Origin: an uncultured Nitrososphaerota archaeon
GTDB taxonomy: Archaea > Korarchaeota > Korarchaeia > Korarchaeales > Korarchaeaceae
Direction: 5' to 3'
Length of the DNA stretch: 64,000 nucleotides
Assembly (NCBI GenBank): GCA_964594835.1
Contig: CAZQNA010000001.1
Coordinates: 32,001-96,000 of the forward strand
In this document: positions 18,529 to 22,037 of the stretch, one piece after another
Layout: every line of letters begins with the position of its first letter
Numbering within the stretch: position 1 is the stretch's first letter
Program-made: the position numbers and the translations under genes
The notes under the pieces: model-generated
Seen by the model: only the letters and a program-made list of their open reading frames with translations
What the model was told of the DNA's origin: nothing
The model's database searches: none

Positions 18529-20079
18529 TTAAGGGTGAGGGGGACGGACCGGACACACCCCACACGCCCAGCAGCGCTCGTCGCAGCTCGGCGTCACCTG
18601 GCCAGCCTCCGCCCTCTTGAGCTCCGTGAGGAGCGCCTCGTCGGTCACCCCTGTATCGACGGCTCTCCTCCAGGGAACGTCGCGGCGGCCGTAGAGGACG
18701 CGCTCCGGATCGATGCCCCACCTGGAGAATGAACGGGCGTAGTTTGACAGCTGGTAGGGGCCCGTCGAGGCCTCGATCAGGGCCTCCCCGGACCCGCGCG
18801 GGGCGAGGGAGATGAGGCCCTGCACTGCCGCCCTGCCGGGGTGGACGGCCTTGACCCTCACCCCTGCCCTGGACCTGAGGTACCCCACTCTCGCCCTGTA
18901 GACCTCCCGCCGAGTCATGGGGACGCCCTGGAACGGGGTGTGCGGCTTGGGAACGAACTGGCTGACGGAGACGTCGACCCTCACGCCCGCCGACTTGACT
19001 CGGGATACCATCTCCGCGGTCGAGGCGAGGTCCTCCTTGGTCTCTCCGGGCAGGCCGACCATGAGGTAGAGCTTGACCTCCCAGATGTCCGCCGACTTGA
19101 GGATCTCGACGGCGCTCAGGATCTCCTCGAGGACCGTCCTCTTGTTGATCGCCGCCGCCAGCCTGGGGCTGCCTGTCTCGGGGGCGAGCGATACCTTCCT
19201 CACACCCGACCCCCTCAGGACCTCTCCCATCTCCGGGGTCAACATGTCCGCCCTGAGCGACGGGAGCGAGGGCCTGAGCCCCGCATCCACCACGCTCTGC
19301 AGGACGTCGACGGTCCTTGGATGGCCGAGGACGTCGCTTCCTATCACGTAAACCCTCTCAAACCCCAGCTCCGCGGCGAGCTCCACCTGACCCAATAGCT
19401 GGCTCAGCGGCCTGTCTCTCCTCGGCCTCTGAGTCCAGCCCAGGAGGCAGAACCTGCACCCGTGAGAACACCCCCTCGAGAGTTCCAGGAGGAAGGGGTT
19501 CTGACCCCCGTCACGGAACCTTGCCCTTATCTGCCTCTCGGGCAGGTAGGTCAGGGGGGATCGCCTGAACCTCGCCCGCCCTCCGGGGAGGTAGGCCCCC
19601 TCGACCTCCTTGAGGCTCTCCGCGTCTCCCCCCTCTAGGAAGACCCTCAAGATCTCTTGGACGACCCCCTCTCCGTCCCCCACGACCGAGACGTCGGCGA
19701 ATCCCTCGAAGGGCAGCGGGTTGGCGGTGACGGGTCCACCGACGACCAGCCTGACCTCCCTGTCCCCCCTGCGAGGGGAGATAGAGTACTCCCTAAGCAT
19801 TCGGAGCAGCGTGTGGACCTGCCCCTCGAAGTGCAGGGACGCCAGTATCACGTCGAACTCTCTCAGATCTGATCCGCTCTCCACCGATCCGACCGAGTCT
19901 GACGTGAACCTCTCCGCCATCACCCCGGGCACGGAGTTGGCCAGGAAGTAGATCATCTGATGGCCGAGCGAGTTGACCGCGGCCTGGTAGGGTCCCGGGT
20001 ATACCACGGCCACCCTGAGCCCGTAGTCCCTAGGATCTCTATCGTAGAAGCCGCCTTCCTCCAGGACCCCCCGGTGCAT
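18529..20079 (-). CDS. Radical SAM protein (B12-binding-like N-domain, YgiQ-related)
   Basis: ELSRGCSHGCRFC, APETGS, YLMVGLPGET, FVPKPHTPF. Confidence 0.85.
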   Translation of the reverse strand: MHRGVLEEGGFYDRDPRDYGLRVAVVYPGPYQAAVNSLGHQMIYFLANSVPGVMAERFTSDSVGSVESGSDLREFDVILASLHFEGQVHTLLRMLREYSISPRRGDREVRLVVGGPVTANPLPFEGFADVSVVGDGEGVVQEILRVFLEGGDAESLKEVEGAYLPGGRARFRRSPLTYLPERQIRARFRDGGQNPFLLELSRGCSHGCRFCLLGWTQRPRRDRPLSQLLGQVELAAELGFERVYVIGSDVLGHPRTVDVLQSVVDAGLRPSLPSLRADMLTPEMGEVLRGSGVRKVSLAPETGSPRLAAAINKRTVLEEILSAVEILKSADIWEVKLYLMVGLPGETKEDLASTAEMVSRVKSAGVRVDVSVSQFVPKPHTPFQGVPMTRREVYRARVGYLRSRAGVRVKAVHPGRAAVQGLISLAPRGSGEALIEASTGPYQLSNYARSFSRWGIDPERVLYGRRDVPWRRAVDTGVTDEALLTELKRAEAGQVTPSCDERCWACGVCPVRPPHP

Positions 20080-20102
20080 CCGTGACCACACCTGAAGAAG
20101 TC

Positions 20103-20178
20103 TGGTGGGCCGGGTGGGACTCGAACCCACGGCCTCCGCCTCGTAAGGGCGGCGTCATAGCCACTAGACCACCGGCCC
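20103..20178 (-). tRNA. tRNA-Val(TAC), CCA encoded
   Basis: GGGCCGG acceptor stem, anticodon loop CT-TAC-GA, GGTTCGAGTCCC T-arm, ACCA end. Confidence 0.96.
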
Positions 20179-20301: not shown

Positions 20302-21321
20302 TTATAACGATTTGCGTCCCCTCCAGGCGGGAGGGTAGAGGTCCCTCGGCATTACCACCCTCTCGAGATCGGCGGCTATCCCCCTCTCCGCCTGCAGGAT
20401 CTCGGAGGCGTCCATCCTCGATTGGACGAGCGCCACGAGTTCGCCCTTCAGCGTGACGGCCAGGGCGACCCCTCCCCTCCTGAGCCCCTCGCTCACGGCG
20501 ACGATCCCGGGCACCTTGACCGCGTCTCCGTGTGTTATAGCCGACACCGCCGTGTCCTTGACCACGATCCTGGGGACGTAGTCCAGTACCTCCTCGATCG
20601 GCCTGACCACCCTCCTCAGGAGCGTGTCGTCCCCCTCCAGCCAGGCCCTCGAGGCCTTCTCCAGGTCCTGCAGGGTGACCGAGTCCCTCTCGTGCATGGG
20701 GCCAGACCTGACCCGCCTGAGCTCCCTCATGCTCGCCCCAACGCCAAGAACCTCTCCCACATCGTAGAAGAGCCTTCTGATGTAGGTACCGGCCTCCACG
20801 ACGGCCCTCACGAGCGCGTACCTCCCCTCCCTCTCCAGGAGTTCGAGCTCGCAGACCCTCCTGACTCTGAGGTCCCTCGCCACGGCCGCCTTGACGGGGG
20901 GCCTCTGGTATATCGGGCCGGTGAACATCTCCAGGGCCCCCCTCAGCTCCTCGTCCCCCACATCCCCGTGCAGGTAGAGCACGCCGATGTACTCCTTCCC
21001 GGCCCTGGTGACCAGCCTGCTGAGCCTCGTGGCCCTGCCGAGCAGGATGGGGAGCACTCCCGTGACCTTCGGATCTCCCCGGCCTCAGAGGGCCTCTAGG
21101 GTCCCGCAGTGCCCCACCCTGCCCGGGAACCCCAGGATGGTCCTGACCCACCTGGTGACCTCATGCGAAGTGGGCCCCGACGGCTTGTCCAGGTTGATCG
21201 CTCCAAAGTCCAGGTAGACGTCGATGGGCCTCTCCCGGGGTGGGTAGCCGTATGGCCCCGGCTCCGACTCCTCCCTAACCAGGAGTCGACCGGGCCCCGG
21301 CTCCCCGGGGGGGCAGATCAA
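20302..21321 (-). CDS. cbf5: H/ACA RNA-guided pseudouridine synthase Cbf5, intron-containing: join(21096..21321,20302..21074)
   Basis: Exon 1 has LDKPSGPTSHEV...GHCGTL; exon 2 has DPKVTGVLP, KEY, QRPP, GTYIR and the PUA domain; TTG start overlaps the eL14 stop. Confidence 0.93.
21075..21095 (-). other. 21-nt archaeal pre-mRNA intron with a bulge-helix-bulge motif in cbf5
   Basis: Minus strand GGA-CCCT-AG^A-GGCC-CTCTGA-GGCC-GGGG-AG^A-TCC; removal restores CTA GAT CCG (L-D-P) and removes an in-frame TGA. Confidence 0.9.
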
Positions 21322-21611
21322 GAGCCCCCTCCTCCCCTGACCCGCGCCTCCTTCTCCAGCTCCTCGTAGATTGTCGTGGCCTTGAGGGCCTCCAGGACCT
21401 CCCCGTCGTCGGCACCCTCCGAGATGTCGATCTTGACGGGCAGGGGAACGAGGTGCTTGATGTTGGCCCTCCTCCGCCGCACGCCCGTCAGCTCCTTCGG
21501 TCCGGTGATCTCCACGAAGTTCTTGTCTATCACCCGAACCACGACGCACTTCCTTCCGGCCTCACGGCCCGCCACCTTGACGCACAGCCGACCTACCTCG
21601 ATAACTCCCAT
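21318..21611 (-). CDS. rpl14e: 50S ribosomal protein L14e
   Basis: IEVGRLCVKVAGREAGRKCVVV...GVRRRRANIKHL. Confidence 0.95.
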   Translation of the reverse strand: MGVIEVGRLCVKVAGREAGRKCVVVRVIDKNFVEITGPKELTGVRRRRANIKHLVPLPVKIDISEGADDGEVLEALKATTIYEELEKEARVRGGGGS

Positions 21612-21662
21612 GAATCACCACCTCTCGCGAGGCTGACAGATCTCGCCCCATCGGCCCGATCC

Positions 21663-21977
21663 TCAGGCGAGACCCCCGGCTGGCGAGAGCCTGGCCCAGC
21701 CCGTCTCTATCGCGCGGGTAACCATGAGCTCCCTGAGGCACTTGGAGCACAGGTACCCGCCGTAGGGCCTGTTGGGCCTCTTTTCACTCTTCGCAAGCCT
21801 TGCCATGACCGAGCGGGGCCCGGTGCGCGTCCCCGTGAGGGGCCTACCGCATCGGGCGCACCTCGCCTTCCCGTGCACCTTGTGCCTGTAGTGGTAGACC
21901 GTCCTACCTCCCGGAGTCCTCACGGCGACCCTTCTCTTCCTTGAGCCCCTCGGAGGCCCGAATGGATCCTCTGGCAT
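21663..21977 (-). CDS. rpl34e: 50S ribosomal protein L34e
   Basis: RTPGGR, CARCG, KRPNRPYGGYLCSKC. Confidence 0.93.
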   Translation of the reverse strand: MPEDPFGPPRGSRKRRVAVRTPGGRTVYHYRHKVHGKARCARCGRPLTGTRTGPRSVMARLAKSEKRPNRPYGGYLCSKCLRELMVTRAIETGWARLSPAGGLA

Positions 21978-22037
21978 CGCCAAGCCCTCCGCCGGGATCT
22001 GGGGGGCTCTCCCCCTGGGATATTTAAGGCTTGACCC

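Follow-up and report, generated by a model that had tools for sequence, protein, structure and literature searches.

The cbf5 gene of the window (the window being the whole 64,000-nt stretch of DNA that was analysed) lies on the minus strand, and reading its sequence reveals an insert of 21 nt at 21095..21075. Exon 1 (21096..21321, minus strand) extends from a TTG start to the G of a split Asp codon and codes for DKCLD together with the first part of TruB_N, as far as GHCGTL. Exon 2 (20302..21074, minus strand) begins with the AT of that codon, continues with DPKVTG and ends at a stop codon at 20302-20304; its product is the remainder of TruB_N, followed by TruB_C_2 and PUA. Across the site the minus strand reads GGG ACC CTA G^AG GCC CTC TGA GGC CGG GGA G^AT CCG AAG GTC ACG, with carets at the borders of the insert. 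Three lines of evidence mark the 21 nt (21075..21095, minus strand) as a bulge-helix-bulge (BHB) intron: the predicted fold, the alignment to Cbf5 structures in the PDB, and the use of the same site in relatives.

Mechanical ORF calling splits cbf5 in two, the C-terminal ORF being a 251-aa frame at 20302-21057. The break is an in-frame TGA at 21085..21087 (minus strand), within the loop of the intron; it appears as X79 in a read-through translation, which has 339 residues in all, 78 of them before the X. Pfam matches on the read-through span both ORFs (DKCLD 13-55, TruB_N 68-181, TruB_C_2 182-246, PUA 250-322), and its best match among solved structures is an archaeal Cbf5 of the Pyrococcus type (3lwo_A, E 1.4e-91). 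The sole gap against the Cbf5 structures is one of 7 residues facing EALxGRG, between GTL and DPKV. With the intron removed, a 332-aa protein with an ungapped GTLDPKV results. The Asp at this junction is the established catalytic residue of the TruB/Cbf5 family.

The split call lends itself to another reading, in which cbf5 is broken, or split and never spliced: either a decaying pseudogene, or a 78-aa N-terminal piece and a 251-aa C-terminal piece acting without the catalytic Asp. Indeed, the 251-aa piece stands as a protein of its own in public collections (P0002, with an 88%-identical relative, P0003). However, a C-terminal piece started at its GTG would lack both the Asp and DPKVTG, and the gene is the single cbf5 match in a genome (G000) that is 97% complete (24 contigs, 1.82 Mb). 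Both exons are, moreover, under purifying selection: compared with the congener L002, exon 1 has pN 0.048 and pS 0.32 and exon 2 has pN 0.061 and pS 0.472, and pN/pS is about 0.13-0.23. We regard a broken gene as very improbable.

Upstream of cbf5 lies a ribosomal protein gene whose stop overlaps the TTG start of cbf5 (TTGA, 21318-21321), which suggests coupled translation of the two. The only Pfam match of this upstream gene is to the KOW motif; we take it to be L14e. The order is L34e, the KOW-motif gene, cbf5, and this group is located upstream of tRNA-Ser and tRNA-Val genes. The 5' end of a mechanically called 533-aa radical-SAM ORF (18529-20130) overlaps the tRNA-Val gene (20103-20178), so its real start is probably farther downstream.

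Anatomy and weight of the motif

The full hBHBh' recognition motif occupies 21071..21104 on the minus strand, both in the MFE structure and by a scripted motif check. It comprises a 3-bp outer exon helix (GGA 21104-21102 paired with TCC 21073-21071), a central helix paired at all four positions (CCCT 21101-21098 with GGGG 21080-21077; three C-G pairs and one U.G), two AGA bulges (21097-21095 and 21076-21074), a 4-bp inner stem belonging to the intron (GGCC 21094-21091 with GGCC 21084-21081) and a hairpin loop, CTCTGA (21090-21085). The intron itself starts at the last base of bulge 1, continues through the GGCC/GGCC hairpin, looped by CTCTGA, and the GGGG strand, and ends two bases into bulge 2. 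A 4-bp helix between two 3-nt bulges, one on each strand, constitutes a BHB. In the canonical hBHBh' form, as described in excerpts of PMC7714728, the helices on either side, h and h', both have 2 bp or more; here the outer helix has 3 bp and the inner helix 4 bp. In silico, cuts after the second base of each bulge (after G21096 and G21075) remove 21095..21075 and join ...CTA G^AT CCG..., which encodes L-D-P. The predicted exon-exon junction in the RNA is ...ACCCUAG^AUCCGAAG.... An earlier note on this DNA had described two ORFs, this BHB geometry, and a 21-nt cut restoring GTL-D-PKVTG, and each of these elements is present in the sequence.

How much weight does the motif carry by itself? The MFE fold of 21110-21060 (-17.3 kcal/mol) recovers the hairpin of the intron, the 4-bp helix and both 3-nt bulges; in it, A21102 bulges out of an outer helix of 4 bp. 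For so GC-rich a sequence the stability of this fold is ordinary and does not exceed that of shuffled sequences (z = +0.50; 136 of 200 shuffles were at least as stable). Nor is the bare motif enriched: a lenient scan (H of 4 bp, both h and h' no shorter than 3 bp, no more than 2 G.U pairs, introns of 16-120 nt) gave 15,097 matches across the 1.82-Mb genome and 14,886 in reversed-sequence controls. From these figures the chance of finding the motif at one given position and length is ~4e-5 (15,097 matches over ~3.6 million positions x 105 lengths), and the cut sites of the motif coincide with the borders of the 7-codon insert, which the protein alignment sets independently. As judged from these sequence comparisons, significance comes from the placement of the motif and its recurrence at the same codon in relatives, and not from the motif or its stability as such.

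A search of the genome for further mRNA introns between split ORFs, by ORF merging and a GC3 filter that required 100-codon flanks, returned 79 candidates. These resemble ordinary gene junctions, and the filter overlooks even cbf5, whose exon 1 falls short of the required flank; the result has no bearing on the existence of other mRNA introns. Up to E 1, Rfam assigned no family to the intron region, the two downstream tRNAs being the only credible matches.

The same codon in relatives

The genome belongs to a class-level group of 40 species genomes and a phylum-level group of 43. Across the 43, an intron stands at the same codon in 16, while 23 have none and 4 are unreadable. The window's own genus, g1, carries it in five of five genomes (21, 21, 21, 19 and 19 nt). 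Three genomes of genus g2 (G005, G009 and G012) have introns of 29, 33 and 33 nt, and one of genus g4 (G007) an intron of 16 nt. At greater distance the intron is found in both genomes of family f2 (20 and 20 nt), both of family f3 (25 and 22 nt) and all three of families f4 and f5 (23, 15 and 15 nt). The 23 intronless genomes comprise seven that were read at the junction (three of g3 and four of g5) and 16 of g3 whose matches are continuous and stop-free. The unreadable four are G015 and G016 (no match), G018 (a fragment) and G032 (broken at contig ends). The last of these has cbf5 on two contigs; we attribute this to an assembly break, both pieces stopping at contig ends, and did not count it as a split gene.

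These comparisons bear directly on two further alternatives. The 21 nt could be translated, with the TGA read through or recoded and a 7-residue insert placed before the catalytic Asp, and the window's insert is indeed a multiple of three with a single TGA. Most intron lengths, however, are not multiples of three, so read-through cannot account for the inserts: those of 19, 16, 20, 22, 23, 25 and 29 nt in relatives are not readable through. The stops within the inserts also vary among TAG, TAA and TGA, and the insertion falls inside the invariant GTLDP, which is ungapped in all matched solved Cbf5 structures. Translation of the insert would be a highly improbable explanation.

The 21 nt might instead be an artefact of assembly or sequencing, given an assembly of 24 contigs that is probably metagenome-derived. 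Yet across 20800-21400 the contigs of four DNA runs, drawn from two studies, show 0 differences, and none has the exons joined, although these may be the source data of the assembly. A search of sequencing runs for 20302-21983 gave no RNA run with this locus. The four other g1 species, too, have an intron of 21 or 19 nt there, and the loop sequences differ. An artefact is therefore, in our estimation, next to impossible.

The relatives are also informative about the cut position. In L004 the bulges are AGT and ATA, and the Asp is restored solely by a cut after the second bulge base; a cut between bulge bases 2 and 3 is the rule given in excerpts of PMC2738675. In the congeners L002 and L003 the Asp codon is GAC, which places an A.C mismatch beside bulge 2, and the motif is relaxed there.

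Other lineages

The Desulfurococcales were represented by 121 genomes, the class that includes a MAG with the title 'uncultured Desulfurococcales archaeon'. Their cbf5 matches are split in 82 (best match from query residue 54-81) and continuous in 37, with 2 special cases. Reading 30 of the 37 continuous matches gave 16 with in-frame introns of 21-57 nt and 14 without. The class introns that were read (17 intron-bearing genes; L043, L051-L074) have an identical position, G^AY, and the same CCCT/GGGG helix, so the window's intron occupies the published site. A MAG of this title (L175:3-2336; G048:C7, minus strand) has a 42-nt BHB intron at the cbf5 Asp codon and, separately, an intein of ~520 aa in exon 2, between TruB_N and TruB_C_2 (Pfam Intein_splicing and LAGLIDADG_3). 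Expression of this cbf5 would require RNA splicing as well as protein splicing.

A domain-wide sample covered 251 genomes. Ten genomes of other phyla with low-scoring or multiple matches were read, and the intron was present in one, G327 (13 nt). This genome (0.9 Mb, 99% complete) belongs to another phylum-level group. Its mini-intron, on contig G327:C15 (L079, L082), sits at the same codon and reads, with its surroundings, GGGA CTCT AGA ATAAAA GGAG ACA TCCC; it has no inner helix. Thirty further matches in other phyla had been flagged for stops inside; 29 are intronless and one is without the motif, the stops being terminal. In one more genome of another phylum (G371:C1:442241-443175; L089, L091) the cbf5 match changes frame at residue 191/192, with abutting pieces. 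Either a frameshift or a sequencing error may lie behind this switch, which is unrelated to the Asp-codon site.

We also scanned metagenomes, with a 253-aa 'Candidatus Jorda...' Cbf5 as the query. Among 80 loci, 39 have the intron, 28 are intronless and 12 are unreadable; L127, flagged as a 40th intron-bearing locus, was discarded as a false motif pairing. The metagenome introns (L095-L174) are of 14-39 nt and occupy the same site. The NCBI '[Candidatus Jorda...' Cbf5 proteins P0106 (253 aa) and P0186 (239 aa) are missing the DKCLD part. P0106 begins right after DPKVTG, as exon-2-only ORFs do, and close relatives at 81-85% identity are of 249-255 aa. These protein sequences by themselves suggest that the same intron is present in the Jorda... 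lineage of Asgard archaea. Gene callers split intron-bearing cbf5 genes into a short ORF and a ~250-aa ORF that lacks the catalytic Asp, and such pieces are common in public collections, where they can mislead functional annotation and marker-gene counts.

Covariation and coding consequences

The comparative set contains 68 distinct junctions and 67 distinct introns, with lengths of 13-57 nt. The rejoined codon is Asp in all 68 junctions (GAT in 52, GAC in 16). The four pairs of the central helix are formed in 66, 66, 68 and 68 junctions, respectively. Pair 2 is C-G in 55, T-A in 10 and A-T in 1, and pair 3 is C-G in 63 and T-A in 5; at these two pairs, where a Thr or Leu codon differs at its third position (synonymously), the intron thus differs to match. 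The first pairs of the inner helix vary among G-C, A-T, T-A and C-G. This pattern also speaks against a broken gene: a decaying gene would not keep GAT or GAC in 68 of 68 junctions, nor compensatory changes between exon and intron.

In the frame of exon 1, a stop is present in 56 of the 67 introns, compared with 11 and 7 of 67 for the other two frames. The 11 introns without an in-frame stop are of 14-32 nt and never a multiple of three. Judged by reading frame, no copy would be translatable into full-length Cbf5 unless spliced. The excess of in-frame stops suggests that unspliced mRNA may be meant to yield no long product.

Splicing machinery and proposed pathway

EndA is encoded by one 363-aa ORF (G000:C4), in which a unit made of an N-terminal and a catalytic part occurs twice; 41 of the 43 genomes of the phylum-level group have such a two-unit EndA in a single ORF. 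The C-terminal unit aligns without gaps across EKPR to chain 3p1z_B, presumably the A. pernix enzyme. By residue count from the alignment, EKPR corresponds to positions 43-46 of this chain, and its K and R stand opposite K44 and R46. In A. pernix EndA, K44 and R46 lie in the specificity loop (PMC3241643). RtcB is also encoded in the genome (E 1.5e-179).

Other substrates for the same machinery are likely to exist. ARAGORN predicted 61 tRNAs and flagged 20 as having introns. Twelve of these 'introns', of 191-2544 nt, we regard as artefacts of the intron mode; the other 8, of 23-71 nt, are the predicted intron-bearing tRNA genes. On contigs C1, C8 and C12 several of the predicted short introns are at non-canonical positions, for example 30 or 32 rather than 37/38, which would fit an EndA of broad specificity.

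Taken together, the data make it very likely that the window's cbf5 is a two-exon gene whose BHB intron, at the catalytic Asp codon, is spliced via EndA and RtcB. In the proposed pathway, the primary transcript would fold into the canonical hBHBh' at the exon-intron borders; the fused two-unit EndA (363 aa) would cut between the second and third bases of both bulges; and RtcB would ligate the exons, the 21-nt intron probably being circularised. Ligation would rebuild GAT, the codon for the catalytic Asp, and so give the 332-aa Cbf5. Unspliced mRNA would stop at the TGA after 78 residues, so that active Cbf5 would come from spliced RNA only. That cleavage and ligation occur, and that EndA and RtcB are the enzymes, we infer from the sequences. 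The earlier note's proposal of a tRNA-type intron splitting the Asp codon is borne out by the exact match of the insert to the gap against the structures, the 68 of 68 junctions, the non-triplet lengths in relatives, and the presence of EndA and RtcB. Its estimate of a ~78-aa product from unspliced mRNA agrees with the 78 residues counted before the TGA, and the excess of in-frame stops lends this some support; its further idea that splicing 'gates' pseudouridylation is speculation. If the two-exon reading is right, mRNA substrates would not be confined to (alpha-beta)2 EndA: a fused two-unit enzyme would have one too.

Host placement and intron history

According to excerpts of PMC2738675, the cbf5 intron is limited to the Desulfurococcales and Sulfolobales, a statement repeated in passages of PMC7714728 and PMC10485636. 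The same excerpts of PMC2738675 score Ca. Korarchaeum cryptofilum, the Thermoproteales and two thaumarchaea as 0 and put the gain of the intron in the ancestor shared by the Desulfurococcales and Sulfolobales. A full-text literature search, with subscription journals and supplements outside its scope, gave no report of a cbf5 intron outside the Crenarchaeota. In a broader search on archaeal groups, PMC7714728 was the only one among the matches listed to mention cbf5.

We read the 43-species phylum-level group that includes the window's genome as Korarchaeota-type. Of the full-length Cbf5 proteins that bear a name, the closest (57-58% identity) are labelled '[Candidatus Korar...', and their junction motif is as in genus g3. 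Excerpts of PMC5829648 describe (alpha-beta)2 EndA as general in TACK except Korarchaeota, and the fused EndA found here matches the type named there as the Korarchaeal exception. We also built a tree of Cbf5 exon 2 (57 rows, quick search, midpoint root). The rows of the window's class cluster weakly (SH-aLRT 69), and none of them nests within the 30-row Desulfurococcales-class group (SH-aLRT 94); the 57 rows give no sign of a recent transfer of the gene. As far as can be told from these indirect lines, namely the type of EndA, the nearest Cbf5 proteins and this tree, the host probably lies outside the Desulfurococcales and Sulfolobales. The earlier note had named cbf5 introns from exactly these two orders, in agreement with the excerpts of PMC2738675, and had argued that the known range would be extended if the organism lay elsewhere; to the same degree of certainty, it is. 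What is new here is the occurrence of a cbf5 intron in a Korarchaeota-type lineage, where the motif is canonical and EndA is built differently.

Within the group, every sampled deep branch (f5, f4, f3 and f2) has the intron and only g3 and g5 are without it, so one or two losses are more parsimonious than five or more gains. The Cbf5 exon-2 tree does not place g3 and g5 as sisters. Between groups the picture is less clear. The site and the helix are as in the crenarchaeal intron, and both are constrained by coding sequence and by pairing; the intron could share descent with its crenarchaeal counterpart, or it could be an independent insertion at a place where the coding GGGA...UCCC already pairs. 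Its occurrence in most deep branches of the Korarchaeota-type group, in the unrelated 0.9-Mb genome and in 39 of the 80 metagenome loci points to an older origin or to repeated insertion, and the new lineage accordingly either moves the origin earlier, with repeated loss, or implies repeated gain at one hot spot.

A more far-reaching scenario, which we put forward tentatively and consider rather doubtful, is that the intron predates the split between Korarchaeota and Thermoprotei, was lost repeatedly, possibly reaches Asgard archaea, and has been kept by selection as a fail-safe. The intron would then have a far greater age and a wider spread than in the published single-gain picture, with repeated losses, for example in the genus nearest the named Korarchaeum proteins. 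A fail-safe role would mean that Cbf5 is made only when tRNA splicing works, coupling H/ACA pseudouridylation to the activity of EndA and RtcB.

Comparison with known systems

The closest known system is the cbf5 intron of the Desulfurococcales and Sulfolobales (Aeropyrum, Sulfolobus; Watanabe 2002, as cited in Yokobori 2009, and Yokobori 2009 = PMC2738675), which lies in the same gene. As there, the window's intron is inserted between the G and the AY of the catalytic Asp codon, has a CCCU/GGGG central helix and AGA, the usual sequence there, as its first bulge, is cut, by prediction, between bulge bases 2 and 3, and is short and of variable length. The host is different, namely a member of the Korarchaeota-type group. 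In addition, most published cbf5 introns are, in the excerpts of PMC2738675, 'unconventional' BHBs cut by a hetero-oligomeric (alpha-beta)2 EndA, whereas the window's motif is a canonical hBHBh' and its EndA is a fused two-unit polypeptide instead of the (alpha-beta)2 heterotetramer of the published cases.

Archaeal pre-tRNA BHB introns share the arrangement of 3-nt bulge, 4-bp helix and 3-nt bulge, with EndA and RtcB as the presumed enzymes in both cases. Unlike in those introns, the host RNA here is an mRNA, and the exon strands of the motif are Gly-Thr-Leu and Asp-Pro codons; since these strands are coding, not only pairing but also the protein sequence constrains the structure. Finally, Haloferax volcanii HVO_1309, as described in excerpts of PMC7714728, likewise combines a BHB in an mRNA with a two-unit EndA of the homodimeric type. 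That intron is in the 5' UTR of another gene in another phylum and is experimentally tested, while the cbf5 intron described here lies within the reading frame and is predicted from sequence.
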